From NCBI RefSeq assembly GCF_963676685.1, contig NC_092353.1:26683690-26747689 (forward strand): a DNA stretch of 64,000 nt, read 5' to 3'. The notes under the pieces are model-generated. The model ran no database searches and was not told the origin of the DNA. It saw only the letters and a list, made by a program, of their open reading frames with translations. The DNA is from Mytilus edulis (Eukaryota). How positions within the stretch are numbered: the stretch's first letter is position 1; every line of letters starts with the position of its first letter. This document shows, piece after piece, positions 26,076 through 52,019 of the stretch. A program made the position numbers and the translations under genes.

Positions 26076-26324
26076 CAGATAATCATATTCTATTTACGAT
26101 ATTAAAGTAAAACTTGCAACTCTTTACCGTCAGATCGGATGGAACTTTTCACATCTCAAAGTCCATTGGCAAAACTCTTCTCTGGTGCCTTCTTATTTTA
26201 AACTTATTGTAATACCCGCAAAAGGCCGCCGATGGAATTGATGGAAATTTATTTTATTGCAAATTGAATAGTTTGCCAATTTTTTGTCCATTTAATGAAA
26301 TATGACTTTTTTGTCAGGACCAAG

Positions 26325-26467
26325 ATGAATTACGACAAACTACTAATGAAAATCGGAGGGTTTGGCCGTTTTCAGAAACGTATGCTGGCTTTGTTAATGA
26401 TACCTCCATTTTTGGATCCCATGACGTCATACATGCTGACATTTATACTTGGAGATCATAAGCACAG
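26325..26467 (+). CDS. SLC22 copy 1 exon 1 (start codon, TM1)
   Basis: ATG at 26325. Peptide MNYDKLLMKIGGFGRFQKRMLALLMIPPFLDPMTSYMLTFILGDHKH. Donor CAG|GTTAGT at 26468. An in-frame upstream ATG at 26295 is not conserved in copy 2. The conserved TTTTTTGTCAG|GACCAA 10 bp upstream suggests a possible 5'UTR exon junction. Confidence 0.75.
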
Positions 26468-29400
26468 GTTAGTTTTTTTCAAATTGCAATCTGAATGACA
26501 GACAACAATACGCGATAATACACAGAAAAATAATTTCTGATAATAACAATACGAGATACAATGGAGAAAGAAAGAATTGCTATCAATTTCAAACGTATTA
26601 ATGGTAGTGACAGCCGGTAATCCGGTGTATGTAATGCTTATTTTAAAAGTAGGTAGCCGTGTTACATGTAAACGTTTTTAATTAATAAGCTATTTTTTTT
26701 TGTTCGTTTATAAATCGACATTGACGATCTGATCTTCAAGTTATTACATTTCAAGACTTTTTAAACAGCTTATTGTATGACAAATTGATCTTTCATGGTG
26801 AACATCTGACACTTCCCTTCCAAAAATACGATATATGACGTTACGGAAAAACATACAAAGCTACAAAAAGTAATTTTTGTTGAGCGGTCGATAAAAGCTG
26901 CAATCGCTATTTTTCAGACTATTCAAAGAAAAAAGAGGGAGAAAAAACAATTGCAATCAAAATGTCGAATAGAAAAAAAAAAACCAAAAAACAGACATTA
27001 AGTCAACACAATTGAAATAATTTGTTTTATTATCTCAATATTGAGTTAATATGTAAAAGGGTAGCATTTAAATAATATGTCTGCTGTGACCTAAAGCTAA
27101 ACGAAGAATTTAATTTTATATAATAAATATGAATTTAATATTGATAATTTGAAAACCTTTCCTGTAAAAGTTAATGCATTTTCACTATATATTGCAGATG
27201 CCAAATGCCAAACACCATGGGTGATCCATTTAACAGTACTCTAAATATGGCTGCAAACATTTCTGAATGTTTTGTATATCAAAATGGAAGTACAACCGCC
27301 TGTAATGAGTGGGTCTACGATCAAAGTCAGTACAAATCTACACTTATTTCAACAGTAAGTTTTGCGTTCAATTACGTTTTTTGGTATGCTAGAAAACCAA
27401 CTGCAGTCTGAATGATCCTTAATGTACATATATCAAATAATTTGGAATTCATGAGCCTCACATCTAAACAACGACGATTACACAGATTAAATCCATGGAA
27501 CTACAAAGTATGAATCATATGATGGGTATAGTTTCAAACAAACAGTTAATATAATCTGTTAAAAGCTGGCATACGAACGCACTATTTTAAAAAAATTGAA
27601 AACTGATTTGGTTTTTACAGGCTTAAGAAATATTTAACATTTTGTAACTATTTCATTTGATACCATCATATTTTAATTCGTTTTGTTGCAGTCATTCTAT
27701 TTCATGTTTGTTCGTGTCTTATGTGTGTGAATGTGTTTTTTGGGGGGTTTTCTGGGGGGTGGGGGTGGGTACATCTATAAGATAATTCTAAAATGCTACT
27801 TTTCTAAATTTCGTTTTCACTGATCGTTAATGTAAACACATTTTATTAAAGAAAATCTTAAGGTATAACTACAAAAGTAAAGACATAAATACGAAATATA
27901 CAAGTAATGCAATAATTGGGGTTAGGAAAAAAGAACAGTGATCCTCTATAAATCCGTCACCCTAAACTCAAAAATAAAATTAAGAAACTATATAAATAAA
28001 ACGATGTGACGTAAGTGCCAATGTGGCATCTCCTCATCCTGGTCACAATGTATAAAACTAAAACAGTTATAGGTCAAAGTATGGCCTTCAACAAGGAATA
28101 TTGGCTTACATCGAACAGCAAGCTATTAAGGCCCCAATCTGACGGGTGTAAAGCAATTCAAAACAACTGAATAGCAAACGAATATGTTACACGTTGAAAA
28201 TACAGTCAATGAAAACAATAACATAAAGATTGTAAACCAAGCAGTATGCTTACAACGCAAAAACATTATTTGTACATTAGTATTTTACATTCAAGTTATT
28301 AGTTACAGTTAGTGCTTGCATTAAAAATTATTCAGGCATTACCATTTTTCAGTTTGATATGGTATGCGACAACAAATTTGTAAGAAGTCACACGATGCTT
28401 TGTCATTATATTGGAATTTTTTGTGGTGCCTTCACATATGGAATGTTTTCTGACACGTATGTATGCTCACACGCGATCTGCAGTCGTATAGAGTTGAATT
28501 GAAAAGAATAACAAACAACATGGCAACAAAAGTAAACACAGACAAAAAGAAAGCAAAGGTCTTTTAAACAATAAAAAAGTCATTAACAGCACAAAACCTT
28601 CCGAACTTAAGCGCTGCAAATATTATGAAGGTTTGCATCTATAGTTACATGCTATCTGATGACAAACCTAGTTTTTTCTTCATCAGCTGCGCACATGAGA
28701 ATATAGTTATAAAGGTAGACTTGTAAAATGTACATGTAAATACAAGAGCGTCATATTCAAAATCGTGAAATTTAGTTGAAAATCTGGGTACTTGACTTCA
28801 CAGGTCGATGCGCCCTTAAAATTAAAAATCGTTTTAAATGAGAAAATGTGGCCCGTATGGTTTGCAATGAAACAACTCTCCACTAGCCCAATCATAAGTT
28901 CATCATTAAGAGGATTTTTGAGATGTCAAATAATACTACTGAAATCCGGTTTTTTTTTTCTTATCTTATTTGAAATGTACGCCATTATCATATTTGAAGA
29001 CTTGGAAACACAATGCTAATTGCTGTATTGTCTGAAGAGTGTTATTATATTTTAGCCACACTAAAAGAGGGACGACGGATACCAGAGGGAGAGTCAAACT
29101 CATGGATAGAGCATAAACTGACAACGCCATGGCTAAAAATAAAAAGACATTAATTATCGCATATATTATAAGAATAAGTTAATTTGTTAAAATTGCCAAT
29201 GAGACGACGATTCACCAAAGACTAAATGAAACAGAAGTTAACAACTATAAGTCACCCTATGTCCTTTTGCAATGAACTAAAGCACATTCCATAGGTTTCT
29301 ATAAAAGGCATCTAAATGACAAATGAAAACCATTAAAACGAGAAATCTAACGGCCTTGTTCATGTACAAAACAATGAACGAAACCAAAATATGATATACA

Positions 29401-32400
29401 GTAACAAACGAACACCTTTGAATAACAGGTCCTGACTAATGGTACATACACATACAGAATGTGGCGGCAAACATGTTTTAAACCGCAAACCCTTCCCTAA
29501 CCTTGGTCAGAGGTGTAACGGAAAACATAAGAACAAACTATAAAAAAACACACCTGAAAAGTGTTTAACTCATCAACTCGATCAGAAGTAGTAACAAAAG
29601 TTAGAAAGGCATAGACCGGCCTTGGCAGGGTATTTTTACATCCCGCAATAAAAAAAATATACAAAGTACACATCTGAGAATACTCTCAGTCACTGATAGT
29701 TAATTGAAAGCCAATAACACATTATAAAACATTTTGTATCTAAGACTAAAATATCAAACAGAACACATCCAACGAATTTAGTGCAAAGACGTCATTAGCA
29801 GTTCGAGACAAATGACCTTGTGAAATGCCAAATAACAGGTATCGTTAATATTCATATGTATATAACCATACTTTTTTTTATTTGGTTTGAATTTACTGAT
29901 AACAAAATCAATATTTTTACAAATAAAATCAACATTTAAAGACACAATTACATTGTTGATTTTGATTGTGAGAGATAATATGTTTCTGAAATAATAACAC
30001 TAGAAGAACCACGCTGTTTAAACTGATTTTTTTAATTTAGTAACCAAATCACACAGAATTATATATATATTTTTTTAATTCAGATTAGGTAGACGACCCG
30101 TATTGACAACATCACTCATAGGAATGATGTTACCAAATTTGATTAGGTCTTTTGTTTCCTCTCTTCCACTTGTTGGTTTCCTGATATTTGCGAACGGATA
30201 TTTCAGTATGCTCGTGTATCAGTCAGGTTATGTTCTAGGTATGCTGTTTACATTATATATCGCAGTTTTTATATGTGATTTTTTTTTTGGGGGGGGGGGG
30301 GGGTATGTTTAAATGTTAATCTAACAAAAATATGACAACGAATTTGAGGACTAATTGAATAAGAAGTAAAATTCAACAAAAAACATTCATTTTATTTTTA
30401 ATGACGCATTGCTATTACAGTTAACGAAAATTAAATTTTGCGATTCTCATTTACAATTATTCAACCTAACGTCCATTATTAAATAGTAGTAACCAATCTC
30501 ATAAGTACTGCTGGTAATTTGTTTATCTTATTTGTATATATTTATATAATTGTATATGCTCGGAAACGGGCCCTTTAATTGGATTCAATGAATAATCTTA
30601 TTCTTATTCTTATTCTATGCGCAAGATTTCGTGTGCCTTTATAACAGATGGACATTTCATTTCGAAAAAGGAACAATATATCAGTTCACAATATGTAAGA
30701 TATAAATATGTTTTGTGCATATAAATGATATTCATCTGTTTAGATGTTTTTCGTTCTAGCTACAGAATTGGTGGATCCATCTAAAAGAGTGTTCGCAAAC
30801 TTTGCCTATTATTTCTCCTTCTGTATTGGAGAATACGTGCTGGTAATTGTTGCCTACTTTATCAGGGATTGGCGTATTCTAGGCTGGTCAACATCAATAG
30901 TTGTAGGAATATTTCTCACCTCATTACTGTATGTAGATATATATCAAGTAAAATCATAGCAACTTAATAGTTTTATTTTAAATACAATCAAATAAAAAAA
31001 GTACTTTGGACAATTTATTGAAAAGAAGGGATATGGCAAAACATTTCAAGAAACAAAATCACTACGCGTACATGGAAACACAAAGATAAAAGGAACAGTA
31101 CTATTATTGCCGTTCTTCATTTGTCAGAAATGTCAAATTAATAGACTCGATAAAGCATTTAATTGTGTGTTAATTATGATTAAATATAGGCAGAATTGAC
31201 AATATAGATCTATTTTAACTCGAATTTTTTTTAACAAAAATATTGTTAAAGAAACAAGACGAAAGTGCGTTTCGTCTAAAAATTCTAATCAACAGAGCAC
31301 ATAATTTTTAGCCCCTCACACGATTTTCTCTTCGAAATGCAAATCATTATATTTAGAAATACTATATTTCAGATTCCAGAAAGAGTCGCCACGATGGCTG
31401 ATAGCTAAGAGAAAGTTATCGAGAGCTGAAATGATTCTAAAGGATATTGCAAAAGAAAATAATGTTAATTTTGACATTGACATTCAGAAAATTAAGGTTG
31501 ATGAAACACAAGAAAGGGTTGCATTTTGTACAGCAGTCGGAGAGCTTTTCAAGTCAAAAGTTCTAACTGTTCGATTGGCTATATTTATGTTTAATTGGTA
31601 AGTACTTTGAAACAATAACATAAACACGTTTGTAAATCAGCATGTACATCAATCAATTTATTAGCTGTTTAATGTCGTGATATAGCAGCATGGGTGAAAG
31701 AATTGTTTTTGAACGTCCGATGACAAACATTGTCTACATATAAGGACAAGAACGTCTTAATGTGACATGACTTTGAACCAAGTTTTATATTTGACCGACA
31801 TACTAAGCCGTATATGCAACGTGAAAGTTCACAAGCTAAAATATAGCAGCTGGACATGTTACCATACCCAGACACATATTTATGACTTTGAACTGATCAG
31901 TCTGTTCTTACTACTTAAGGACGCACATTTATATATTATATATACATAATATGTTTTACAGGTTTTCAATAAGTATGACTTATTTTGGGATCACAATGAA
32001 AGTTGGTAACTTAGGTGGGGATGTCTATGTTAATTATTTAATATCCACGTCAGCTGAAGTAATTGCCTTATTCATATGTCTTTATGTGGTGGAAAGACTT
32101 GGAAGAAAGAAAATATTCAGTGCTTCTATGTTAATCTGTGGCATTGGTTGTCTGTGTACAATATTTTCATCTTTGTACGGTGGCCCATGTAAGTAGAATT
32201 ATGGACACTTTTAAAAGCTTTAATTGCAATTAAAGTAAAATAAAGACTTCTGAAAAAGCACCGTAATTACATAACTTTAGTATATATGAGCTTTTTTAAC
32301 ATGCCGATAACGTACGTATTTGTAAAGGAGTTAAACCAATGTGAACATTTTCCGTCGATGATTGCAAATGTATTATAGTATGTGCAATTCATTTCGCTTT

Positions 32401-34217
32401 TCCGTTTGTTTAATAGATGTGAAATAAATAGTATAGTTTTCACTGTCCATAAGTGGAGGTGAACTTTATATACGCAAACGATTATCATTTTTATAATCAG
32501 GTACACTTCAAAGCGACCAAACATATACTTGCTTCGAGACTCTGTATCATAACATAATTCGTTGGTGTTTTATTTTATTTTTTGGAGTCAATGACTTTTT
32601 TTCATATTTGCTGTCTATCTTTTTTTAAACGAACGGTTTAAAATGCACAAGCTGCATGAAAAAAATATAGCAAAACAAATGAAACATTTCCACAGTTTCA
32701 ATCTATTTAAACTTTTATTTGCGAAGAAATTTAAAGGTACCGGTGAATAGACTACACACAGAACAATAGCTATTGTATTCACTCAATAAAACAACAGAAC
32801 TGAAAAAAAAGTTGAAATAGATTGAACAATAGCAGATGAAAATGTAGAAAAATTTAGTTTGGTTCGCACTAATATCACCAATTGTAAGATACTTGAAATT
32901 GCTTGTTCCACATTGAGATAACATACTTTTTCGTCGTTTTCCATTCCCACTATTAGCTATTTAAATTCATCATATATTTCTCTGTTAGTTATCAATGATA
33001 ACAGGTGATATGATCATAGATATATATACGATTTTTTTTCGCTATCGTCCCATTGGAATTAATACCTGGTTTTGCATTGATCCAAATCATTTACATAAAC
33101 TATGATAAATACATAACTATTCAGACTGATAATTTTTAAACTGAATTTTACAAGCTTAATTTATAATCAATTCGGCTTTGTAAAATATGACTTATATCTA
33201 TTCATTATGGAACTCGAATGTTAATCCACGAATGTATTAGCATATAGCAATGTAGTTTCATGTAGATACGACAAACCATGTAGAAGGAGTAACAATGACA
33301 CGGTTCGTTCAATTAACATTTCTAAGTTAAAATGAATATAGATAGTAATACCTAAATGCACTTGGAAGTTACACTTCTTTCTTTGCATCTATTTTGTATT
33401 TGAATGCATTTAAACCACATCGGACAAAAATTTGTATGCAAGGTATAATAACATAGTTTTTATCGTATTTTCATTTGTCTACTACAGCCCTTCACTGGTT
33501 GACGATAACCTTAGCTATGATAGGAAAGCTCACAATAACGGTGGCATACTTTAATATTTATCTTATGGTAGCGGAAAATTTCCCAACTAACCTCAGATCA
33601 TTTGCGCTTGGAATTTGCAGCTCATCTGGGTATGCTGGGTCAATGGTGTCTGCATATGTTGGTGATTTGGTAAATATGTGTTTTTTGAGATTATTTCCAA
33701 TTTTTTTTTATGGTGACCCTTTTTCGAAACGAGGAAAGAAATTTTGACAAGATGTTTATATATATATATTTTTAATTTTACCAAATCAAAACCAATTTTG
33801 CTTTCAAAACTCATTTAATTTCCTGCTTTTATGAAATATGAAAAATCCATAAACATGAGAAACATGCTAAAATGAAGGTTAGATTTAACAGTCAGAATTA
33901 TAATAGGAACACGAATAACCCTAGAATAAAATAAGATAAATAATGACAGCTTTTAGGTGACATTTCACAGGTTCTTCATGTATCAATTATAATTAGTTAA
34001 TTTCCAGTAAATTCATTTCATATATTTGTAGGGTGTATTGGTTGATACAAAGTTTGGTGTTGCCTTACCGCTGGTAATATTTGGTGCTTTTGGTATTTGT
34101 GCTGGTTTACTATCGTTCGCCCTACCAGAGACTAAAAATATGCCATTGCCTCAAAGTATACAAGAAGCTGAAAATATTTCAAGGTCTGTATTTACGTCTA
34201 AGCAACAAAAACCTTAA
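26325..34217 (+). CDS. SLC22-family (organic cation/anion transporter-like, major facilitator superfamily) gene, copy 1. The gene-level span covers 9 coding exons, and the frame is intact throughout.
   Basis: Exons at 26325-26467, 27198-27354, 28353-28456, 30084-30238, 30760-30932, 31380-31597, 31962-32188, 33488-33669 and 34032-34183(/34217). All junctions are GT-AG and the phases are consistent: 2,0,2,1,0,2,1,0. Hallmarks are the N-terminal M..D.LL...G.FGRFQ box, a glycosylated loop after TM1 (NST, NIS, NGS), the MFS motif G.FSDTLGRRPVL between TM2 and TM3, PESPRWL after TM6, and LPETKN..LPQSIQEAE after TM12. It is collinear with human OCT1 over the whole length. Confidence 0.85.
27198..27354 (+). 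CDS. SLC22 copy 1 exon 2 (extracellular loop)
   Basis: Acceptor ATATTGCAG|A. Peptide (R)CQMPNTMGDPFNSTLNMAANISECFVYQNGSTTACNEWVYDQSQYKSTLIST. Donor ACA|GTAAGT. Overlaps ORF 27205-27411. Confidence 0.7.
27742..27769 (+). other. G-quadruplex-type motif (G6 N6 G6 N1 G5 N1 G3) in intron 2 of SLC22 copy 1
   Basis: TGGGGGGTTTTCTGGGGGGTGGGGGTGGGT. The homologous position in copy 2 intron 2 is a G18 run at 41600-41617. Confidence 0.6.
28020..28200 (+). mobile_element. Family A SINE-like copy in intron 2 of SLC22 copy 1
   Basis: AGTGCCAATGTGGCATCTCCTCATCCTGGTCACAATGTATAAAACTAAAACAGTTATAGGTCAAAGTATGGCCTTCAACAAGG... The paralogous copy in copy 2 intron 2 is at 41690-41960, so the insertion predates the gene duplication. 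Confidence 0.5.
28353..28456 (+). CDS. SLC22 copy 1 exon 3 (TM2)
   Basis: Acceptor CATTTTTCAG|TTTGAT. Peptide FDMVCDNKFVRSHTMLCHYIGIFCGAFTYGMFSD(T), which corresponds to OCT1 TEWDLVC...GYLAD. Donor AC|GTATGT. Confidence 0.7.
29040..29135 (-). repeat. Fragment of the retroelement 3' tail, minus orientation
   Basis: CTAAAAGAGGGACGACGGATACCAGAGGGAGAGTCAAACTCATGGATAGAGCATAAACTGACAACGCCATGGCTAAAAAT is the reverse complement of the tail terminus consensus. Confidence 0.5.
29190..29690 (+). mobile_element. Family A SINE-like copy (~500 bp) in intron 3 of SLC22 copy 1
   Basis: TTGCCAATGAGACGACGATTCACCAAAGACTAAATGAAACAGAAGTTAACAACTATAAGTCACC ... TCTGAGAATACTCTCAGTCACTGATAG. The paralogue in copy 2 intron 3 is at 42720-43215. 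Confidence 0.55.
30084..30238 (+). CDS. SLC22 copy 1 exon 4 (MFS GRR motif, TM3-TM4)
   Basis: Acceptor TTAATTCAG|A. Peptide (T)LGRRPVLTTSLIGMMLPNLIRSFVSSLPLVGFLIFANGYFSMLVYQSGYVL. Donor TAG|GTATGC. Overlaps ORF 30103-30312. Confidence 0.75.
30289..30303 (+). other. G15 homopolymer 50 nt downstream of the exon 4 donor of SLC22 copy 1. It is absent from the same position in copy 2.
   Basis: TTTTTTTTTTGGGGGGGGGGGGGGGTATG. Confidence 0.7.
30760..30932 (+). CDS. SLC22 copy 1 exon 5 (TM5-TM6)
   Basis: Acceptor TTCGTTCTAG|CT. Peptide (A)TELVDPSKRVFANFAYYFSFCIGEYVLVIVAYFIRDWRILGWSTSIVVGIFLTSLLY. The weak donor TAT|GTAGAT (end 30932) is preferred because LLY|KESPRW aligns 1:1 with OCT1 SWFF|IESARW. 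The alternative donor CAA|GTAAAA would end at 30947. Confidence 0.6.
31380..31597 (+). CDS. SLC22 copy 1 exon 6 (cytoplasmic loop)
   Basis: Acceptor ATTCCAG|AAAGAG; a second AG 7 nt upstream is out of frame. Peptide KESPRWLIAKRKLSRAEMILKDIAKENNVNFDIDIQKIKVDETQERVAFCTAVGELFKSKVLTVRLAIFMFN(W). Donor TTG|GTAAGT. Confidence 0.7.
31962..32188 (+). CDS. SLC22 copy 1 exon 7 (TM7-TM8)
   Basis: Acceptor TTTTACAG|G. Peptide (W)FSISMTYFGITMKVGNLGGDVYVNYLISTSAEVIALFICLYVVERLGRKKIFSASMLICGIGCLCTIFSSLYGGP. Donor CCAT|GTAAGT. Overlaps ORF 31951-32196. Confidence 0.75.
33488..33669 (+). CDS. SLC22 copy 1 exon 8 (TM9-TM11)
   Basis: Acceptor CTACTACAG|CC. Peptide (S)LHWLTITLAMIGKLTITVAYFNIYLMVAENFPTNLRSFALGICSSSGYAGSMVSAYVGDL. 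Donor TTG|GTAAAT. Overlaps ORF 33475-33747. Confidence 0.75.
34032..34217 (+). CDS. SLC22 copy 1 exon 9 (TM12 and start of the C-terminal tail). It is either the terminal exon by read-through to TAA at 34215-34217, or it ends at a donor at 34183.
   Basis: Acceptor TATTTGTAG|GG. Peptide GVLVDTKFGVALPLVIFGAFGICAGLLSFALPETKNMPLPQSIQEAENIS then RSVFTSKQQKP*. A donor-like AG|GTCTGTA sits at 34183/34184. The ISRSVF read-through is also present in copy 2. The tail is short for SLC22, so a further 3' exon cannot be excluded. Confidence 0.55.
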   Translation, partial: GVLVDTKFGVALPLVIFGAFGICAGLLSFALPETKNMPLPQSIQEAENISRSVFTSKQQKP

Positions 34218-34267
34218 ATCAAAGGAATGGATTTCTCAAATGATTCTATACTTTAAACCATTTGCTT

Positions 34268-36500
34268 ATGCCCGCGTCACACTGTCCCGATTTTTATATA
34301 CGATGGACACCCGAATGCTAAAATTGTAAGTTCGTACGAAGTTGGTCCCGATCTCGTTAAAATATCAAAAAGTGACCGAAGCAAGTACGATGAATAACGA
34401 AGTCTATACGATGGTGCCGAAATTGTATACGATAGCAAAAGATGGACATACGAAGATTAACCGAAGACGGGTATTTAAGCTTCATATCTCAGCCGTAGCC
34501 TACACGATGGATCAAGAAGGCTACACGGTGGATTACGAAGGCTACACGATGGATTACTATGATGGCGCGATGGCCATACGATGTCTAAAAAATACGAACA
34601 GAATTTCGACAACATATCGTTTCTGTACAAGTCTGCCATGCATGGCGGGTAATCGATCTTTTTGTCTAATTCTTATAAAACTTAGTTTATTATCCCCTCG
34701 CCTACTACATGTAAGTTGCATGTAGATAAAATTGTTATGGACACTCTAGAACCAAAATGCTCAAAACTTGGTATGGTGTTACTCGTTAAGAATATCTAAA
34801 GCGCTATTGACTTTAAAGTTCAAAGGTCAAGGTCACAGTGGCAGTTGTAATACAAGGCAATATCACCCTTGTGGACACTCTAAAACCAATATGCTTCAAA
34901 AGATTTTAACTACATTTGGTATATTGTTCCTCCTTGTAATGATCTGACATTTTTTACGTTCAAGGCGAAAGGTCAAGGTCATGCAGATGGACTTGTTTTT
35001 TCTCCTTGAAATAGCATAATACACAGGAAATTGATTGCTCATTTTTTTACCTGCTGGTTCTAAAGACAATATTAAAGGTATTTCCAGTTACTAAATGTTT
35101 TGGTTGATTTCTAAAAAAATAGTTTATGTATCAAATATGGATATTCAATTTACCATTTTCTGCATGTGTCATATACAAATATAGTGTCCATATTTGTCCC
35201 CAATATGTTACATACGAGGGGATGCCACGCTCGGCACTGCCTTGTTTGAACTGTAAAATGTGTGCACTAGTCTGAATAATTACCCATAATTATGCCCATG
35301 TTTACTGATCTATCTTAAAGGTAAGGTAATGGGTTCGTTGATCCCTTTTATTCAAAAAGAGCTCTTTCCAGGAGAATATCACAATAATATAGACAAAAGG
35401 AAGGATGTGGGGAAAGCAACAAAGGCGGCAAAATATGACATATAGAAAACAAAATGGTTATGGAGTAAACATTCGTGTGACAACAACTCAGACGATACAT
35501 AAAAAATCAGAATAATGAATAAAAAGTTGGTTTCCCTATATAAGTGTACCTGCAGTGTTGGTGTACGAGGCGCGTTTATTTAAAGGAACCCCAGCATGTA
35601 ATGATATGAAACAATCCAGATGGAAAAGGCCTGAACATATCGCTCTTATCATAACTAACGTTTTTGTCTTTTCGTGTTGTTGTTGTGAATAGAAGAAATT
35701 GAATATGTTCCGACATTGTCTAATATAAATTAAACTCTAAATTCTTTGTCACCTTTAATTATGTTACTTGATATAAAAAATTGACAAAAAATAATATTTT
35801 ACTTGGAAAAGTAAATCCTGAGCCTGTAATAGCTGCTCTTCTTGTTCCATTTGAATTAATAGAAACAACGCTGTCGCCTTTCTTGTTCTCATAGAATCAT
35901 ATGATATGAGCTCCATGTTTTGTGAACGTCTTTCTTAACTGTCGTATTGGACTGACCAGTGCATATCGCGCATGGCACTTTAAATGTATTTTAGCGCGAA
36001 AATTAACTTACATTTAGCTGGATTTATTGCCGTCGTAGTTCCATCTTGTCGCCTTCGTACTTTAATACGATGGCAACACGACGGGATTACGAGGTCTTCA
36101 CGAAGTCGTGTTGCCATCGTAAGACCTTCGGGTACCTTCGTGATTCATTCGTGTAGACATCGTAATGTCAAAACTGCCCGATGGAAACGATTGAAACACG
36201 AATGCAATACGATGTGAAAAGATGCATTCCCGGTGACATTACGATATTGAGGATGGTGATACGAACTCAATACGAACCCTCAACATCGGGCGCACCTTCG
36301 GGGATTTTTTAACATGTTAAAAAATTTAGAACCCTTCCCGAAGTTGTCCCCGAAGGCTAGAAAAAGTGGCCGATGGTTAAAGATGGTTAAAGATGGCACT
36401 ACGAATAGCCCGATCTGGATACGACCAGCCCCGATTTTGAAAATTTCCATTATCGTGTTGCCATCGGCGTAAAAATCGGGACAGTGTGACGCGGGCATTA
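34268..36500. mobile_element. Non-autonomous DNA transposon (~2.2 kb) with 29-bp perfect terminal inverted repeats and subterminal short repeats. It has no transposase ORF.
   Basis: The left end ATGCCCGCGTCACACTGTCCCGATTTTTA (34270-34298) is exactly the reverse complement of the right end TAAAAATCGGGACAGTGTGACGCGGGCAT (36470-36498). Both subterminal regions (34300-34600 and 36040-36470) are packed with the 8-mer TACGATGG / CCATCGTA and with ACGAAGG variants in inverted arrangement. The interior carries a ~120-bp tandem duplication (34745-34985). The element sits ~50 bp downstream of the SLC22 copy 1 stop. Confidence 0.65.
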
Positions 36501-41617: not shown

Positions 41618-41689
41618 TGTGGGGTAGAGGGGGAAACTTCTTTTGCCCAGTTTGTCTTGCAATTAAAAAAAATATTTAATGTGGCATGA

Positions 41690-42256: not shown

Positions 42257-42719
42257 GTACGTATGCATACACGTCAATCGACAATCGTATAGAGTACACA
42301 AAAATTGAAAAATAGCCGACAGCATGGCAAAAAAAGAAAACAAAGACACAAAAGGAAACAAAACAAAGGTCCTTTAAAAACAAATCATTAACAACACAAA
42401 ACCTTCCGAACTTCCAAGAAGGTTTGCACCTATAGTGACATACGTCGTAGGGCTATCTGATGACAAGCCTCATTTGTTCTTCATCAGCCACATACAGCGA
42501 AGAAAAAAATATAACAGGATAACATTTTTAATAATTATGTATCTAAGAGTAGTTTTGAGATTTCAAATAATAGTACTGAAATATGAATTTTTGTCTGTCT
42601 AATTTGAAATAATAACGACATAATCATATTTGAAGATTTAGAATCAAAATGCTAATGGTGTATTGTCTCTAGAGTGAAATCTTTGAGCCACACTAATTAT
42701 CGCAGATATTATAAGAATA

Positions 42720-43215
42720 AGATGATATATTATAATTGGCAATGATACAACAATCCACCAGAGACTAAATAACATAGAAGTTTACAACTATAGGTCACAC
42801 TACGTTTTTCAACAATAAACAAAACACATACTCCATAGGTATTTATACATTCCCCTAAATGACAAATGTAAACAACTGAGAAAACTAACGGCCTGGTTTA
42901 TGTTCAAAACAATGAAGATAACATAAATAGGATATACAGTAAACAAACAAAAAACCCTGAATTACAGGTTCTGACTTGGTACATACACATACAGAATATA
43001 GCGAGGTTAAACATGTTTGGAGGCCCCACACTCTCCCCTAACCTTGGACAGTGGAGGAACAGAAAACATAAGAACAAACTTATAAAAAAAAAGCAGTTGA
43101 AAAGAGTTTAAAATCGATCAAAAGCAGAAACATGATTTAGAAAAGCATAGATCGGACGTGGCAGGGTTTTTATACATCCCACTATACAAAATTTACAGGT
43201 TACAAATCTGAGAAT
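42720..43215 (+). mobile_element. Family A SINE-like copy in intron 3 of copy 2
   Basis: TTGGCAATGATACAACAATCCACCAGAGACTAAATAACATAGAAGTTTACAACTATAGGTCACAC ... TCTGAGAATACTCTCAGTTACTGAC. Confidence 0.55.
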
Positions 43216-43649
43216 ACTCTCAGTTACTGACAATGAATTTGAAGCCAATAACATCTACTGAAAAATTATATATCTACGACTTAAATATCAATCAGTGCAC
43301 ATCCAACATCCAATGAATTTAGTGCAAAGACGTCTTTAGCAGTTCGAGAAAAACATGACCTTATGCAATATCAAATTACAGGTGTCGACAGATTGTAGAG
43401 CTGTGAATATGCATATTCATATAACCATACTTTTTTTCTTTGGTTTTAATTTACAGGATAGCAAAATCAAAATTTTTACCAATAAAAACAACATTTAAAG
43501 ACCTAATAACATTGTTGAATTAATAACATTTTCGCATGAATTAATTTAAAGGATCGGTACGTTTACCGGGATAGGTATACAACATTTCCGTAAGAATTAG
43601 AGTGTATGTCCTATCCTGTATGAACTTACTGTATATAAAAATAAAAGGA

Positions 43650-43990
43650 AGATGGGGTATGATTCCCAATGGAACAACTCTCCACAATGACACAGAAATT
43701 AACAATTTAAGGTTAGCATACGGCCTTCGACAAGAGCAAAGCCAATAACGCATTATCCGCATTAAAAGTCCCAATCCTGAAAACTGTAAATCAAGTCAAA
43801 TGAGAAAAGTTACGGCCTAATTAGTGATCCAAAAACTGAACAAAAAACAAATATGTAACATAGCAACAATTGATAACCACTGAATTACAGGAATTTGGCT
43901 TGGGACAGGCACATACATATAGAATGTAAATAGGCTAAACGTGTAAGGTGGATCCCAATCCTCCCCTTATCTAGAACAGTGGTGTTACAA
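43650..43990 (+). mobile_element. Additional family A SINE-like copy in intron 3 of copy 2, with no counterpart in copy 1
   Basis: GATGGGGTATGATTCCCAATGGAACAACTCTCCACAATGACACAGAAATTAACAATTTAAGGTTAGCATACGGCCTTCGACAAGAGCAAAGCC... Confidence 0.5.
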
Positions 43991-44488
43991 TACATTATAA
44001 GTATTAAAAACCAATTGAACAAACAGCCAATAACAAATAATAAAAAAAAAATCATGCGTCTAAGACTAAGTTATCATACAATAGACATCCAACATCCAAT
44101 GGATTAAGTGTAAAGACGTCATAATGATATTTGGCAGGAAGTTCAATTGGCATAGGTACATTTATTTCCATTGAGACCAATTGGCGCTGCAATCTACTCG
44201 ATTGTCTATTGTCTTTGAAACGTTTGCATAGTTAACAGATTTGAGTGCTTTTTAATTTTTGTATTACGTTGCCGAAATGACACTCAGGCGAAACAAATCA
44301 CTGCGTTAACACTTTTAAAAATATGACTGATTACATCAAGATTATATCCCGTCTCTATCAACTTAATAAGCGATTTTCTTTGGATTATAAGTTTCTTAAA
44401 TAAATCCACTAGAAGAAACATACTGTTCAAGATGGTTTTTTTTATTTGATAACAAACTCACACACAATATATTATTTTTCTAATTCAG

Positions 44489-44643
44489 ATTAGGTAGGCA
44501 ACCTGTTTTGACAACAGCGCTTATAGGAATGATGTTACCAAATTTAATAAGGTCTTTTGTTTCGTCTCTTCCACTTGTTGGTTTCCTGATTTTTGCAAAC
44601 GGTTATTTCAGCATGCTTGTGTATGATACAGGTTATATTCTAG
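44489..44643 (+). CDS. SLC22 copy 2 exon 4
   Basis: Acceptor TAATTCAG|A. Peptide (T)LGRQPVLTTALIGMMLPNLIRSFVSSLPLVGFLIFANGYFSMLVYDTGYIL. Donor TAG|GTATGC. Confidence 0.6.
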
Positions 44644-44861
44644 GTATGCTGTTTATATCTTATACCATAATTATATGTGATTAGTGGGGATATGTTTTAA
44701 TGTTAACTAAACGGAAACATGACAACGAATTTGAAGACTAAAAAAAATTGACAGTCAAAATTGATTCTATTTTTAATGAAGCATTGCAATTACAGTTAGC
44801 GAAAATAATAAATTTGCTATTCTCATTTGGAATAATTCAGCTTTACGTCAATTGTTAACAA

Positions 44862-46420
44862 AAAGAGTGAAAAAAGATACCAGAGGAACAGTCAAACTCA
44901 TAAATCGAAAATAAACAGACAACGCCATGGCTAAAATGAAAAAGACTAATAATAGTAAACATGACGGAAGGGAAAGCAGATCCTGCTCCACATGTGGCAT
45001 CCGTAGTGTTGATCATGCTATAACAAATCCGGTAAATAGTCTAAATTGGTAGGTCACATTCATGATAGGGAAGGGGCTTGTAGTTACGACGTAAGGAACA
45101 TATCCGATATCATCTGTGAAACGATTATTCCATAACGGTCAACCAACTCGTGATGGCGTCCGTAAAATTTACGAAGGGATGATTTCAACTTCACTATTTG
45201 GAACTCTTGGTTTAATAGCTTCCTTGTAAATAACAACCTTCTTTCAAGAAAATCATGATAGGAAATACAAGCACGGGAATATCGTATCAATTGGGAGATA
45301 TATACCCCGTATGCAGGTGCTGCTGGAATGTTGCTACTGAGAAATGAAAAGTTCACAATTAGAAAACTGAAATCATATCTTTTGTCGTAAAGTTTATTTT
45401 CAACCGACCCTCATTGTCAATTTAAAGATGTATGTCAAGTTATGAGGCCGACTTAGTTGTATCTATTGTATCATTTATCTCTAGTTCGATGGTATACATG
45501 CGTTTAACATAGTCACCAATTTTTAATTATTTAGTGAGAGAACATCATCTATATATCGGAAAGTAAAGTAAAAGGATATTGCTAACTTCTTATCTTTCTT
45601 CCTAAGAAGTTCCTGTATAAAGTCAGCCTTATAATAATAAAGAACTAAATCGACAAGAAGAGAGGCACAATTGGTTCCCTTTGGAATGCCGGCAATCTGT
45701 TGAAAAAAACGCCATCCGAACGTAACAAATATGTTTTCAATCAAAAAATGAAGCATCTTGATAATGTCAGTTTCAGAGAATTTTTTGTTTGAAATCAGAG
45801 TGATCCTTTACAAAGTAGGATTTATCCCCCCCTAAGACAAGATACTTGTATCTACGTTGGCCATTCTTTTTAAGGAAGCAAAGCAATACCAACGCTTTCA
45901 ATTTGTCTTTAAGTTTGGAATGCGGAATACTTGTGTAAAGTGTAGAAAAGTCAAATGTTTTAATACTATTGCAAGATGAAAGAGAGTTAGATCGCATGTA
46001 CTCTAAAAGATCTTTAGAAGTTTTTAGTATTCACATCTGATTTACACCACCTCTAGAATAGGCAGTTTCTCAATAACTTTGAAGCCCGGCTTAGATTATT
46101 GATAAAATTGATGTTAATAATTTAGAAAGAGGTTTGATGGAGCACTTGGAACACCTAGCAATATACCGTTGTTTGTAAGGACACTTATTTAGTTTAGGTA
46201 TCAAGTACACTGATGGAATATCCAGTTCTTCGTCTTTGGTTGAAATTCCAAAGGAAGATAGAACAGACCCTTGCTTATCCAGGATTTCCTCTTTGGTTAG
46301 ATGTTGTTTGGGGCTTTATCTGCGGGGACAACAACATATTTGTCGTGGAGATAGAATAACTGTGTTTGCAACATTTAGGTCTTAAAGATAGACCCATTCA
46401 GTTTCTTAATTCTAATTTGT
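44862..46420 (-). mobile_element. 5'-truncated reverse-transcriptase retroelement (Penelope-like/unclassified). The RT domain is degraded by frameshifts. It is inserted in intron 4 of SLC22 copy 2 and absent from copy 1.
   Basis: Minus-strand ORFs in 5'-to-3' order: 45997-45773 (...SIKTFDFSTLYTSIPHSKL..., resembling the Penelope RT motif D..SL(F/Y)T.IP), 45756-45523 (...FQQIAGIPKGTNCASLLVDLVLYYY...FRYIDDVL with the YxDD catalytic motif), and 45356-45084 (IPAAPAYGVYISQLIRYSR...LRKFYGRHHELVDRYGIIVSQMISDMF). A 3' tail at 45080-44862 ends in ...GAGTTTGACTGTTCCTCTGGTATCTTTTTTCACTC. The homology between copy 1 intron 4 and copy 2 intron 4 is interrupted exactly at 44860 and 46422. Confidence 0.65.
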
Positions 46421-46517
46421 ATCAACAACCTCACAGTAACAGTTCAAAATATGTAGGATATAAATATGTTTTGTACATATAAATGATATGCATCTGTTTA
46501 AATGTTTTTCGTTCTAG

Positions 46518-46690
46518 CTACTGAATTGGTCGATTCATCTAAAAGAGTGTTCGCAAACTTTGCCTATTATTTCTCCTTCTGTATTGGAGAATACGTGCTG
46601 GTAATACTTGCCTACTTTATCAGGGATTGGCGTATTCTGGGCTGGTCAACATCAATAGTTGTTGGCATATTTCTCACCTCATTACTGTAT
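46518..46690 (+). CDS. SLC22 copy 2 exon 5
   Basis: Peptide (A)TELVDSSKRVFANFAYYFSFCIGEYVLVILAYFIRDWRILGWSTSIVVGIFLTSLLY. Overlaps ORF 46502-46711. Confidence 0.6.
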
Positions 46691-47038
46691 GTAGATAGTT
46701 ATCAAGTATAATCATAGCAACTCAATAGATTTATTTTAAATGCAATAAAATAATAAAAATACTTTGGACAATTTATGGAAACGACAGGATATGGCAAAAC
46801 ATTTCAAGAATTTACATGTGTTTTAATTATGATTAAATATAGGCAGAATTGACATTAAAGATCTATTTTAACCGAAAAAAGTTTTAACAAAAATATTGTT
46901 AAAGAAACCAGACGAAAGTGCGTTTCGTCTAAAAATTCTAATCAACAGCGAACATAATTCTTAGCCCCTCACACGATTTTCTCTAAGAAATGTAACTCAT
47001 TATATTTAGAAATACATGTACTATATTTCAGATTCCAG

Positions 47039-47256
47039 AAAGAGTCGGCACGATGGCTGATAGCGAAGGGGAAATTATCGAGAGCTGAAATGATTCTAAA
47101 GGATATTGCAAAAGAAAATAATGCTAATTTTGACATTGACATTCAGAAAATTAAGTTTGATGAAAAACATGAAAAGGTTGCATTTTGTACAGTCGTCGGA
47201 GAGCTTTTCAAGTCAAAAATTCTAACCTTTCGATTAGCTATTTTTATGTTTAATTG
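47039..47256 (+). CDS. SLC22 copy 2 exon 6
   Basis: Peptide KESARWLIAKGKLSRAEMILKDIAKENNANFDIDIQKIKFDEKHEKVAFCTVVGELFKSKILTFRLAIFMFN(W). Donor TTG|GTAAGT. Confidence 0.6.
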
Positions 47257-48071
47257 GTAAGTATTTTGAAACAATAACCTATACACGTTTATAAATTAGT
47301 AAGTACATCATTATTGGCAGCTATATTTCGGAGTATTTTATAAAACAATGCCTTATGATGACAGCATAGAAGTTTGAATTATTGTTGAACGTCTGGTGAC
47401 ATTTTTATATTTGACCGGCATCCGTAGACGGATATTCAATGTGCTATTTAACAAGCTAAAAGCTAGCAGATGGACATGTTACCATACCCAGGCACATATT
47501 TATAACTTCGAACCAATCAGTCTGTTCTCACTAATTGCGGACGCATATTTGGCAGGGAGGTAGCTAAAAGGTCAAGGCTTTCATTTGAAACTACCAGAAA
47601 TCGAGCACACTATATCAAACACTTAAGGCAATCATTCTACCACGATACCAAGTGGTGTATTCATTTTATGACGTGCCCAAGCAAAGCAATTTCTACTCAA
47701 TAATGGTATTAATCATATATTATACTATTATTTAATGCATTTGAACGATTGATGGATAGTTATAGGCAATCATATCACATCTTGTTTTTATATAAAAAGT
47801 TACAAAATATGCACAGATTGAACAATGGTATTTACATGCCAGTTTCCAGCAGTTTCCATTAATGCTGTTCAGACAAAAGGCACAATGTAGATGTAGCTGT
47901 AAAAACAATTATAATTGACGGAGTTGGCATTTCTCCTCACACCAGCAACACGTATTTGATAACTTAATTTTTAGTATATTGATTTACCTTTAACAGGGGA
48001 AACCGAACAAAAAGTTATTTAACAAATGAAAATATGATATATAAAACATATCTGAAAGGAATAGCTAAATA

Positions 48072-48200
48072 AAGGCAACAGTAGTATACCGCTGTTCAAA
48101 ACTCATAAATCCATGGACAAAAAACAAAATCGGGGTAACAAACTAAAACCGAGGGAAACGCATTAAATATAAGAGGAGAACAACGTACACATTCTCAAGT
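48072..48200 (+). repeat. Interspersed repeat family C copy in intron 6 of copy 2
   Basis: AAAGGCAACAGTAGTATACCGCTGTTCAAAACTCATAAATCCATGGACAAAAAACAAAATCGGGGTAACAAACTAAAACCGAGGGAAACGCATTAAATATAAGAGGAGAACAACG. Confidence 0.6.
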
Positions 48201-48458
48201 TAACAGGGAATCACTGACGTATTCGAGATCGCTTTAAAGTTGAACAATGCATGTGTTATAAAATTTAACGTGTACGTTTAATAATATTATGCTTCAAATT
48301 TTCTAAAAAAATGATTGTGAGAGAAAGTATGATGAAATAATAAACTGTATTTTATATACTGTTTTTGACATTGGTAATTGTTTGTTTGGTACAAAATTTA
48401 TTAGTACACTTTCTTCTGTTATGGTGAAAATGTAGCTTAATATCAAATTGTTTTACAG

Positions 48459-48685
48459 GTTTTCAATAAGTATAACTTATTTAGGGATCACAATGACAGT
48501 TGGTAACTTAGGTGGGGATGTCTATGTGAGTTATTTAAGATCCACGTCAGCTGAAGTAATAGCCTTATTCATATGTCTTTATGTGGTGGAAAGACTTGGA
48601 AGAAAGAAAATATTCAGTTCTTCTATGTTAATTTGTGGCACTGGTTGTCTGTGTACAATATTTTCATCTTTGTACGGTGTTCCAT
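48459..48685 (+). CDS. SLC22 copy 2 exon 7
   Basis: Peptide (W)FSISITYLGITMTVGNLGGDVYVSYLRSTSAEVIALFICLYVVERLGRKKIFSSSMLICGTGCLCTIFSSLYGVP. Overlaps ORF 48448-48693. Confidence 0.65.
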
Positions 48686-49059
48686 GTAAGTAGTATGTAA
48701 AACACTTTTAACAAGCTTGTATATGATGGTGGTATTTACCAATACCCGGCCGATTCCACTGCTGGTCGAGTTTTATTCCTCTAGGGAATCACCAGTCCAG
48801 TAGTCAGCACTTCTGTATTGACACGAATTATCATTGATACTCGTATGATCATAAATCTAAATTAACTGTTTACAAAACTTTCAATTCTTGATTAAACATT
48901 TGGTCCGAATTTGTATTATAAAGTTTATAGATTCGCCGTATATCAGTCACGAGCATATGCACACGTTAATCAACGATGTGGTGGAAGTGGTAAATAAACT
49001 CATCATAGATACCAGGATTATAATTTTGTATATGCTTTTGGCAAACAATTGAGTTTACA

Positions 49060-50200
49060 TGCAATGAAAACATTTTGTAATATGAATTGATATCAGCATG
49101 TAGAATGAGTTGCGATGACAAAGGCAGTTCTGCCAAAATTCAAAAACTAAAAGGGGGCGTATTAAAAACAAAATGACAGGAACATCTAATGCTCATGCAC
49201 ACCTTTAAATTAGGATCTAACAATGGAGTCGTATAATGAAGATACGTTTAACTATGTTTGATGAGTTGTGATAAAAAGGTCGGCTCTATCAAAACTTTCC
49301 TATTTCAAAACGGCATAACAAAAAACCAACATCATTGAACGGGAACATCCCTCCCACATCCAAATATGATGATACGAGAACTCATGTAAGATGAGTTGAA
49401 ATGAGAAGGTCAGTTCTGTTTAAACTTTCCCAAAGTTCAAAGGGCATAATAAAAAAAAATATAAAAATACCGGAACATCGTACCCAAATGCACATCTGCA
49501 TTTTAGCATCTACCAATGTATAAATTTCAACGCTAATACATTAGATAAACGATATATGAGAAGTTGCGACGGCAAAAAGGTCGGTTTTGCCAATATTTTT
49601 TAATATTCAAGGGGCATAGTTACGAAAAGACTCAAAGGACATGACGTCATTCCAACATGCACATTTGCATATGATGGGTATGACAATGTGGTAGTTATCA
49701 TGAAGTAGTTATCATGATGATACGATAAACCATATATAAGCAGTTGCGATGACAAGGTTGTACCTATCAAACTGTTTCTAGCTCAAAATGGCATAACCAA
49801 AAGGAAACTTTTCAACCGGAACATTCACCCTACATCCACATATGTTGATAGTATTAATTATGTAAGAGGAATTGCGATGAGAGGTCGGTTCTGTTTGAAT
49901 TTCCATGTTCAACGGGCATAATAAGAAAAAAATAGTGTAGGAACTTTTATGCTTATATGATAAACCATGTATAACGAGGTCGGTTATGTCAACATGTTTT
50001 TTGTTCAAAGGGGATAACAATAAAAACGCATTGAACCCGAAACATTCCACCCATATCCATATATGCAGTAGCATCTATCAATGTAGTAAGTTTCATGTAG
50101 ATACGACAAACCATGTAGAAGGAGTTACAATGAAAAGGTTAGTTATATCAACATTTCTTAGTTGAAAGAGGCGTATCTAGCAAAACCTCGAGGGATTTAT
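49060..50200. repeat. Diverged minisatellite (~125-bp unit, ~9 copies) in intron 7 of SLC22 copy 2. Copy 1 intron 7 has a single unit at ~33225-33330.
   Basis: Recurring unit ...GATACGATAAACCATATATAAG.AGTTGCGATGA.AAGGTCGGTTCTG..AAACTTTCC...GGCATAA.AAAAA...CCGGAACATC..CCACATCCA.ATATG... The lone homologous unit in copy 1 reads GCAATGTAGTTTCATGTAGATACGACAAACCATGTAGAAGGAGTAACAATGACACGGTTCG. The units explain ORF 49778-50074(-). Confidence 0.75.
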
Positions 50201-50413
50201 AATCCTTCCAGCACATCTTTAATTCTTTCTTCGCATCTGATTTGTATTTAAATACAATAAAAACACGTCGTTTGAATTATGATAACAAGTTTGTTTTTGA
50301 AAAGGGACAAAAAATCTGCACGCAATATCATAACACGTTTTTTTCATTTTTTATAACCACATATATTCATTTAATCAGTTTTAATTCATCCTATTTTCTT
50401 TTGTCTACTACAG

Positions 50414-50595
50414 CCCTACACTGGTTGACGATAACCTTGTCTTTGATAGGAAACCTCACAATAACAGTGGCATACTTTAATTTTTATCTTATGGTGGCGG
50501 AAAATGTCCCAACTAACCTTCGATCATTTGGGTTTGGAATTGGCAGCTCAGCCGGGTATGCTAGATCAATGGTATCCGCTTATGTTGGTGATTTG
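50414..50595 (+). CDS. SLC22 copy 2 exon 8
   Basis: Peptide (S)LHWLTITLSLIGNLTITVAYFNFYLMVAENVPTNLRSFGFGIGSSAGYARSMVSAYVGDL. Overlaps ORF 50242-50613. Confidence 0.65.
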
Positions 50596-50962
50596 GTAAA
50601 TATTTGTTATTGAGATTATTTCATATTTATTTCCGAATGATGATAAATTTTCATACGAATCACGAAATGTTACCAATATGTATATATAGTTTTTTTTATC
50701 AGAAAATAATTTAGCTTGCGGGGTTCTGTTAATTTTCTGTGAATAACAAAAAAACATAAACACTAGAAGCACGCTATGATAAAGGTAAAATAAGAACATA
50801 CACAATTGTAATAGGAATAGGAATAGGAATAACCTTAGAAAGCAAAAAATAAAATCAGTTAAATAATGATAACATAAGTGAAAGTTGACAAATCTTCATG
50901 TTTCCATTGTAATAATTCAAATGTTAAAATGTTTCAAGTATATTCACTTCATTTATTTGTAG

Positions 50963-51157
50963 GGTGTATTGGTTGTTTGGTGTTGCCTTACCGCTGGTAA
51001 TTTTTGGTGCTTTTGGTATTTGTGCTCGTTTGCACTTCCTGAAACTAAAAATATGCTATTGCCTCAAAGTATACAAGAACCGGAAAAAATTTCGAGGTCG
51101 GTATTTTGTTTAACCTTTGGGGAAATATATATAATTGTTTTATGTTATTTAATGTAA
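50963..51157 (+). CDS. SLC22 copy 2 exon 9, 18 nt shorter than in copy 1, with TM12 recoded between two deletions
   Basis: Peptide GVLVVWCCLTAGNFWCFWYLCSFALPETKNMLLPQSIQEPEKIS then RSVFCLTFGEIYIIVLCYLM*. A donor-like AG|GTCGGTA sits at 51096/51097. Overlaps ORF 50969-51157. Confidence 0.5.
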   Translation, partial: GVLVVWCCLTAGNFWCFWYLCSFALPETKNMLLPQSIQEPEKISRSVFCLTFGEIYIIVLCYLM

Positions 51158-52019
51158 TGTAATTTGATATTTATTTGCGGCTTTGATTATCAAATTATCA
51201 AATTATTTGAAATAGGATGCATTAAAAAAAAAATCTATCAAGAGGATCAAACTCTTATACGGACACCACCACAGGTTGAAATAGGGCATACAAATAAAGT
51301 CAAACATGCACTTCTCTTGATTGATTGTTTATGGTTTGCTTACCGTTCGAACTAAATTGACAAATTGCCTTTGTGTTAATCTTAAATCATCCAATACGAC
51401 AAATAATGACACATTTGTAATTTATTCGATGTTATTTAAGATTGTACTTCCAAATTACAAATTGTAATGATTAAATTTACGTTTCTTTTTGGTGTAAACT
51501 TGAACCGGAAATAAAGGACTGAGACTCTAACAATCTCGACAGTACTTTGTAAGTTTACGCCACCCGAACCTCTGATTGTTTACTGGGATAAGTGTTTATA
51601 GCTAAAGAAATTGATGTATAACGTGATAAATATATTACAATAAAACGTAATGATATGGTTTGATGTAAATAAGAAAACATGTTATCCTAAAATCGTTGAA
51701 GAGATAAACACCTGTCCTCAATGTAATAAACAATGTACATGTACAAGTATTTTACCATATGTCAAGTTTTTAGAAAAAAAACACCAGTTCACACCATGTT
51801 ATAGTAGTAGAGCATTAAATATCTAATAGCTGCACCAAAGGCATTAGACACATTAAATGTTAAAATTTCTTTTTAACGAAAATATCCAATTCATATTCCT
51901 TCGAGGTCACATTTCATTCATCTTTCATAAAACTACAATTTCCTGCTATTTTGTAGAAAACAAATGTACTGTATCATATACCTTTATTTTTTTTTGCAAA
52001 ATTCATTATATAAATGAGA

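Follow-up and report, generated by a model that had tools for sequence, protein, structure and literature searches.

The stretch of DNA analysed here, hereafter the window, comprises 64,000 nucleotides (nt) of the genome of the mussel Mytilus edulis (RefSeq assembly GCF_963676685.1, contig NC_092353.1, positions 26,683,690 to 26,747,689), with a G+C content of about 31%. It carries two SLC22-type transporter genes in tandem: an upstream gene, copy 1, that encodes an organic cation transporter-like protein, and a downstream relative, copy 2, which in all likelihood is a duplicated pseudogene whose decay differs from one chromosome to the next. Comparison of the window with itself returns a same-strand, collinear series of blocks (26300-34193 against 40444-51106) with start codons at 26325 and 40469, 14,144 nt apart; only 2 kb separates the stop codon of copy 1 from copy 2. 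Across nine homologous exons, each taken with 20 nt of flank on either side, the copies are 82-95% identical. Homology begins about 58 nt before the ATG (26267 and 40432) and ends 10 nt beyond the exon-9 donor (34193 and 51106). These measurements uphold the layout given in an earlier interpretation made from the letters alone (the sequence-only reading), which had described a collinear pair 14 kb apart in the same orientation, duplicated from about 50 bp before the ATG, with the downstream member turning into a pseudogene. A literature search found no paper on this locus.

We compared the window with five further loci from four other assemblies (L001-L005) and with a locus from M. coruscus (L006). 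L001 and L002 are contigs of the M. edulis assembly GCA_905397895.1 and the source contigs of the gene models P0001 and P0002; each bears a complete tandem pair and the same upstream flank, and the simplest view is that they represent two haplotigs from another individual, which gives three sampled M. edulis haplotypes including the window. The remainder come from M. trossulus (L003) and from two M. galloprovincialis assemblies, GCA_965363235.1 (L004) and GCA_900618805.1 (L005).

Copy 1 (26325-38376) is, to judge by its sequence, a functional SLC22 gene of ten coding exons. A model built from splice sites and reading frame gives canonical GT-AG borders at all nine exons first modelled, with an open frame throughout, and the translation, exon 10 included, is identical to that of XP_071133848 (P0003), one of the RefSeq entries XP_071133848-51 named 'organic cation transporter protein-like' in M. 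edulis (529 residues). Copy 1 does therefore retain every splice site and phase, as had been claimed, but the count of nine exons falls short by a terminal exon that had been overlooked. This tenth exon sits outside the homology block with copy 2, follows a ttgcag acceptor and encodes with 100% identity the residues that come after ...ENISR in the RefSeq protein, KQYKDGGSVLYRNGAEICLLVTKD; the stop a few base pairs past exon 9 in the nine-exon model is intronic read-through. In RefSeq, the models for M. edulis, M. galloprovincialis and M. trossulus each have 529 residues and stop at exon 10.

The protein matches the Pfam families MFS_1 (E = 2.9e-28) and Sugar_tr (E = 8e-24), both above the curated cut-offs, and its database homologues bear names of the OCT and SLC22 type. 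All 26 matches in a search of solved structures are SLC22 proteins, with SLC22A3 (OCT3) the best (E = 3e-65, residues 72-504) and SLC22A1 (OCT1), SLC22A2 (OCT2) and OCTN2 (SLC22A5) the next relatives, over a range of E = 3e-65 to 8e-55. Like the OCT1-3 and OCTN1-2 transporters, copy 1 aligns with SLC22A3, SLC22A1, SLC22A2 and OCTN2 from the second to the twelfth transmembrane helix (TM2-TM12) and has the motifs ESPRWL and LPETK, the latter encoded in exon 9, which aligns with the last transmembrane helix and LPETK of the solved structures. It differs from vertebrate SLC22 proteins in an apparently short TM1-TM2 extracellular loop, some 55 residues or about half the vertebrate length, in which (residues ~49-100) three cysteines and four N-X-S/T sites can be read from the sequence; vertebrate SLC22-named proteins among the database matches are only ~25-28% identical to it. 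Internal exons of 104, 155 and 169 nt, as in copy 1, are typical of vertebrate SLC22 genes, and the family usually grows by tandem duplication, forming tandem clusters in vertebrates.

Intron 9 of copy 1 holds a 2.2-kb insertion (~34268-36497) with 36-nt terminal inverted repeats (92% complementary) at its ends. None of the loci L001-L005 has it at this site, and it resembles a non-autonomous DNA transposon of the terminal-inverted-repeat type, specific to this haplotype, within a functional gene. A perfect 25-bp repeat of 3.2 units (38006-38085) lies directly upstream of exon 10.

Copy 2 (40469-51096) reproduces the first nine of these exons, at coordinates that agree to the base with those of the sequence-only reading. 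The exons are collinear, their boundaries are conserved and the introns can still be aligned at 57-91% identity, as in a non-processed pseudogene; a processed (retrotransposed) pseudogene was ruled out by the retention of all eight introns and the tandem position. Four lesions mark the copy in the window (Table 1). At the first, alignment of the exons confirms AT in place of GT at the exon-1 donor, and read-through past this exon meets a TAA at once. The second, a single G lost from exon 3, shifts the frame into a TAA at 42181-42183 (codon 110). The third consists of paired deletions of 8 and 10 nt in exon 9, between which 17 codons are recoded without a stop, so that 23 residues of TM12 are replaced by 17 others and the frame is restored. 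All three had been described by the sequence-only reading and stand as it gave them. The fourth is the end of homology just beyond exon 9; no counterpart of exon 10 was found for copy 2 in the window. Splice sites other than the exon-1 donor are all canonical, and there are no nonsense codons except those that arise from the frameshifts.

The introns of copy 2 have grown as well. The proposed 1.5-kb retroelement proves to be an insert of 1.58 kb in intron 4, and its designation is best limited to what the minus-strand open reading frame (ORF) fragments offer: the reverse-transcriptase motifs FDFSTLYTSIPH, GIPKGTNCASLL and FRYIDDVL, the last of the YIDD type, and, for the joined fragments, a match to Pfam RVT_1 (E = 1e-3) below the curated cut-off, with no Pfam match for the single ORFs. 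In the alignments with L001 and L002, the insert is enclosed in stretches that match over their full length. The 'expanded minisatellite' is likewise real as an expansion, 7-8 units in intron 7 against a single unit in copy 1 (33224-33332) and in all orthologues but that of M. coruscus, but it is a degenerate array of ~130-nt period, recovered by seed-based repeat search and permissive blastn. Tandem Repeats Finder (TRF) scored no minisatellite in the copy 2 introns, because the units are only ~70% alike.

Table 1. Features of the tandem SLC22 locus (window coordinates)
Feature	Position	Strand	Remarks
Copy 1 exon 1	26325-26467	+	ATG at 26325; donor GTTAGT
Copy 1 exon 2	27198-27354	+	
Copy 1 exon 3	28353-28456	+	104 nt
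Copy 1 exon 4	30084-30238	+	155 nt
Copy 1 exon 5	30760-30928	+	169 nt
Copy 1 exon 6	31373-31597	+	
Copy 1 exon 7	31962-32188	+	
Copy 1 exon 8	33488-33669	+	
Copy 1 exon 9	34032-34183	+	TM12 and LPETK motif; donor AAG/GTCTGT (34183/34184)
Copy 1 exon 10	38301-38376	+	terminal coding exon, …RKQYKDGGSVLYRNGAEICLLVTKD and stop; TGA 38374-38376
Copy 2 exon 1	40469-40611	+	reading frame intact
Lesion 1, exon-1 donor AT for GT	40612-40613	+	CACAG/ATAAGT; copy 1 has GTTAGT
Copy 2 exon 2	41366-41522	+	donor ACA/GTAAGT intact
Copy 2 exon 3, lesion 2	42154-42256	+	103 nt; G missing after TTT, between 42156 and 42157
Copy 2 exon 4	44489-44643	+	
Copy 2 exon 5	46518-46686	+	
Copy 2 exon 6	47032-47256	+	
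Copy 2 exon 7	48459-48685	+	5 private nonsynonymous changes: M>I, F>L, K>T, N>S, I>R
Copy 2 exon 8	50414-50595	+	7 private nonsynonymous changes
Copy 2 exon 9, lesion 3	50963-51096	+	134 nt; 8 nt lost after 50974, 10 nt after 51025
Lesion 4, end of homology	51097-51106	+	last 10 nt shared with copy 1; intron 9 and exon 10 missing beyond
Insert in copy 2 intron 4	44858-46437	-	1.58 kb; degenerate reverse-transcriptase ORF fragments 45523-45997
Tandem array in copy 2 intron 7	49097-50170	+	degenerate; ~130-nt period, 7-8 units, 66-75% identical
Putative gene-conversion tract	copy 1 30679-31930; copy 2 46437-47550	+	end of intron 4 to intron 6; blastn 81-93%
Interspersed repeat, ~300-430 nt	9805-10203, 25600-26011, 29192-29575, 37531-37960, 41679-41972	both	
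Interspersed repeat, ~300-430 nt	42690-43111, 43643-44001, 52007-52282, 56294-56530, 57171-57439	both	

The lesions are not spread evenly over the three M. edulis haplotypes. Whereas the AT donor is common to all three, the window and L001 alone have the 10-nt exon-9 deletion and lose homology 10 nt beyond the exon-9 donor, and the exon-3 deletion and the 8-nt deletion occur in the window only. These differing distributions indicate that the lesions arose independently, and bear out the earlier claim of at least three independent events; of the two lesions it had singled out for comparison with other assemblies, the AT donor recurs in two further haplotigs and the exon-3 deletion is private to the window. 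On L002, homology to intron 9 of copy 1 goes on, and a copy of exon 10 with an intact acceptor lies at L002:38965-39036, so that the tight 3′ boundary in the window is a secondary truncation: the sequence-only reading was right to end the homologous unit a few base pairs after exon 9 in the window, but this was not the original boundary of the duplication.

Copy 2 also occurs outside M. edulis. In M. trossulus an orthologous copy starts 9.5 kb downstream of copy 1, with the same 21-nt gap before the ATG and the same diagnostic substitutions; the frame of exon 1 is open there, and the donor is perfect (CACAG/GTAAGT). The copy 2 of M. galloprovincialis L005 has lesions of its own: a TA insertion that creates a TAA at codon 5, a 37-nt deletion that takes out the exon-1 donor and the loss of 1 nt at a different point of exon 3. 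In the other M. galloprovincialis locus (L004, 34250-37831), spacer homology ends about 40 nt before the expected copy-2 ATG, and the remaining 3.5 kb, rich in interspersed repeats, contains no copy-2 exon. With a locus that extends only 3.5 kb beyond the breakpoint, this could be absence of copy 2 (presence-absence variation) or a large insertion, and one M. galloprovincialis haplotype may lack copy 2 altogether. The M. coruscus locus has a single gene and no copy within 10 kb downstream. A 1553-residue 'SLC22A4_5' protein from that species, considered as a three-copy fusion, was rejected as such: it combines one SLC22 gene with transposon-derived sequence at a single-copy locus.

How old is the duplication, and how has each copy evolved since? 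We obtained Nei-Gojobori estimates of synonymous (dS) and nonsynonymous (dN) divergence and their ratio, omega, over 1,512 aligned coding positions. Between the copies, a comparison that the sequence-only reading had proposed, dS is 0.24 and dN 0.031-0.044 (omega 0.13-0.18). The corresponding values are 0.158 and 0.018-0.020 (omega 0.11-0.13) between the copy 1 sequences of M. edulis and M. trossulus, 0.28-0.30 and 0.037-0.039 (omega 0.12-0.14) between the M. coruscus gene and copy 1, and 0.26-0.28 and 0.048-0.060 (omega 0.17-0.22) between the M. coruscus gene and copy 2. These dS values place the duplication roughly level in age with the split from M. coruscus and clearly before that from M. 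trossulus. Intron identities, mostly 57-82% between copies and 87-94% between copy 1 orthologues, agree with this age. The exception is the segment from exon 5 through intron 5 to exon 6, where the copies are 91-95% identical, a level of identity that each also shows to M. trossulus copy 1; this segment is probably an old gene-conversion tract, as its pattern of similarity suggests.

We polarized fixed differences with M. coruscus. The stem of copy 2 carries 14 nonsynonymous and 15 synonymous changes (14N:15S; omega ~0.27), a ratio below neutrality (P = 5e-4), and that of copy 1 carries 2N:12S, which indicates that constraint acted on copy 2 over most of its history, if less tightly than on copy 1. 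The changes private to the copy 2 of the window haplotype present a different picture: 14N:2S, all in exons 6-9 and including I>R and G>R in membrane segments. This ratio fits neutrality (P = 0.55), is incompatible with an omega of 0.27 (P = 0.0015) and departs from that of the copy-2 stem (Fisher P = 0.012). Polymorphic changes in copy 2 as a whole (27N:14S) likewise differ from fixed ones (18N:32S; Fisher P = 0.006). On the branch common to L001 and L002, counted with the private change of L001, the ratio is 1N:4S, in contrast to the window haplotype.

The reading that best accommodates these observations, and which we regard as highly probable, is that copy 2 is a non-processed (duplicated) pseudogene caught in polymorphic decay, as the distribution of lesions and the neutral pattern of window-private changes both suggest; in this the sequence-only reading was on the right track. 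The duplication itself is not recent: dS between the copies is 0.24, and M. trossulus as well as one M. galloprovincialis assembly has copy 2, which was under purifying selection for most of its life. The gene would have been duplicated around the time of the M. coruscus split or shortly afterwards, and before that of M. trossulus, and copy 2, long under purifying selection, was presumably a working paralogue. Function would then have been lost in the M. edulis / M. galloprovincialis lineage, whose chromosomes now carry different, partly nested lesion sets.

Within M. edulis, the nested distribution over the three haplotypes suggests an order: the AT donor, apparently the earliest of the lesions, followed by the 10-nt deletion and the truncation, and then by the 8-nt and exon-3 deletions. 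The G>A change at donor position +1 abolishes the canonical exon-1 splice site, and intron read-through would lead to an immediate stop; even a correctly spliced intron 1 would still run into the exon-3 frameshift and its stop at codon 110. The paired exon-9 deletions substitute the core of TM12, and on the window haplotype the terminal exon and the normal 3′ end have been deleted. Such lesions are expected to abolish the function of copy 2, with transcripts presumably absent or degraded.

Several points weigh against this account. Once homopolymer indels are discounted, the copy 2 of L002 has no robust lesion except the AT donor, and copy 2 might be less dead on some chromosomes than on others. 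Its non-function is a prediction from DNA sequence. The exon-3 and 8-nt deletions are present in one assembly only, that of the window; our sample comprises only three M. edulis haplotypes, two of which, L001 and L002, we take as haplotigs of one locus, not as paralogous loci; and only about 540 nt of the M. trossulus copy 2 can be read. Finally, single-base indels in GCA_905397895.1 are unreliable, since even exons 3, 5 and 6 of its copy 1 contain 1-nt homopolymer insertions.

The contrast between the window haplotype and the L001/L002 branch, together with the retention of all ten exons on L002, where the +1 G>A change is the one robust lesion, leaves some room for a second reading: that copy 2, instead of being dead on every chromosome, has long existed as a functional/null polymorphism. 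We consider this unlikely. Should some M. edulis or M. trossulus chromosomes still have a GT donor on an L002-like background, an additional working SLC22 transporter would be segregating in the species, a dispensable gene at the moment of its loss.

That some or all of the lesions are assembly errors, with copy 2 intact in the animal, is very improbable. The exon-3 and 8-nt deletions are indeed seen in this assembly alone, and another M. edulis assembly demonstrably has single-base indel errors at the locus. The AT donor is a substitution, though, and recurs across three haplotypes that were assembled independently; L001 shares with the window both the 10-nt deletion and the 3′ truncation; neither private deletion shortens a run of a single base; the translation of copy 1, also from the window, agrees with its RefSeq protein without discrepancy; and the neutral substitution pattern is independent of indels. 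Error is thereby excluded for the shared lesions, an exclusion that does not formally extend to the two private deletions.

We attach as little probability to the idea that the exons of copy 2 serve as alternative 3′ exons of read-through transcripts from copy 1, or that copy 2 is a regulatory-RNA locus. A search of 5.8 billion database proteins found no copy-2-type protein, except two chimeric models from the older M. edulis annotation, P0001 and P0002, in which exon 10 of copy 1 is joined to exon 4 or exon 6 of copy 2 (716 and 670 residues, 'OCTN / SLC22A4_5'; CAG... entries, A0A8S3PTY5 and A0A8S3QQV4); gene calls are absent over the copy-2 start in M. trossulus and over the copy-2 exons in L005, and both results count in favour of the pseudogene reading. 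The chimeras, and the short distance from the copy 1 stop codon to copy 2, speak for read-through. Yet they skip precisely the exons with assembly indels and thus look like prediction artefacts, probably forced by the homopolymer insertions in copy 1 of that assembly; RefSeq models in three species end at exon 10; and a chimeric product would duplicate half an MFS fold.

Least credible of all is that copy 2 still works, rescued by non-canonical or alternative splicing through the AT donor or a cryptic exon-1 donor combined with an alternative exon-2 donor, GTAA/GTATAG. The frame arithmetic offered by the sequence-only reading is sound, since the +4 donor at 41526 restores a frame that is open through exon 9; an in-frame GT lies within exon 1 at 40570 (GAC/gtcata, removing 14 codons), and copy 2 is free of nonsense substitutions. 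Against this, the canonical exon-2 donor is intact and a far better consensus match than TAA/GTATAG, intron 1 has become AT-AG and is neither of the U12 type nor a U2-type AT-AC intron, the exon-1 donor is left unrepaired, TM12 stays recoded, the terminal exon is still missing, the private changes place arginines in membrane segments and no copy-2-type protein is on record. An AT-AC intron, U12- or U2-type, was ruled out separately: the donor is ATAAGT and not ATATCC, the acceptor reads ...aatgcAG, and the orthologous M. trossulus intron begins GTAAGT.

Read as a pseudogene in polymorphic decay, copy 2 resembles the non-processed pseudogenes that adjoin their parent genes, such as the globin pseudogenes. 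It shares with them the parental intron-exon structure, a tandem position in the same orientation, a splice-site mutation, frameshifts and truncation, as well as introns that have gained transposon insertions and repeat expansions. It differs in that its lesions are polymorphic and partly nested and follow a long period of purifying selection, so that the transition is visible. Gerdol and colleagues reportedly described, in 2020, an open Mytilus pan-genome with 'dispensable genes' subject to presence-absence variation. Like these genes, and like segregating pseudogenes, copy 2 is a recent, lineage-restricted duplicate in a differing state among chromosomes, and none was seen at the expected place in M. 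galloprovincialis L004, where 3.5 kb could be read. Unlike them, it is kept in all three M. edulis haplotypes, which points to decay in place and not to hemizygous deletion.

The fate of copy 2 is the classic, ordinary one for a tandem duplicate, and knowledge of pseudogene formation and of SLC22 biology is unchanged by it. The locus nevertheless provides a clean, datable example of the death of such a duplicate, from constraint through a first hit on a splice donor, haplotype-specific frameshifts and 3′ truncation to neutral drift, with all stages of decay visible side by side in existing assemblies. Counts of xenobiotic transporters of the SLC22 family in mussels should leave copy 2 out, and the older M. 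edulis annotation merges gene and pseudogene into chimeric proteins.

Repeats abound around the pair. An interspersed repeat of ~300-430 nt, on both strands, has at least ten copies in the window (Table 1), several of them in introns of both transporter copies, and occurs in all fetched Mytilus loci too. The spacer before copy 2 (39288-40430) is 68-77% like two segments upstream of copy 1 (19160-19717 and 14967-16625), in the same order; a repeated element outside the duplicated unit is the probable explanation, the alternative being a remnant of a larger original duplication. Within the spacer, a 96-bp repeat of 2.1 units (39940-40139, 94% match) lies 330 nt before the copy-2 ATG. Upstream of copy 1, by 1.7 kb, is a 22-bp minisatellite of 30 units (23938-24604) that takes the form of two longer blocks in L001 (~2827-4129 and 6830-7565), so that the array is length-polymorphic. 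At the start of the window (64-2697), a 27-bp satellite (ACAATTACAATGTATGTATGGCAGTAA; ~96 copies, 86% match) gives rise to spurious long ORFs on both strands. Towards its other end, the minus strand has ORF fragments (~59500-63300) that by eye look like exons of a C-type lectin; their counterpart in L001 is a minus-strand gene from 39214 on that encodes 512 residues with a Pfam Lectin_C domain.

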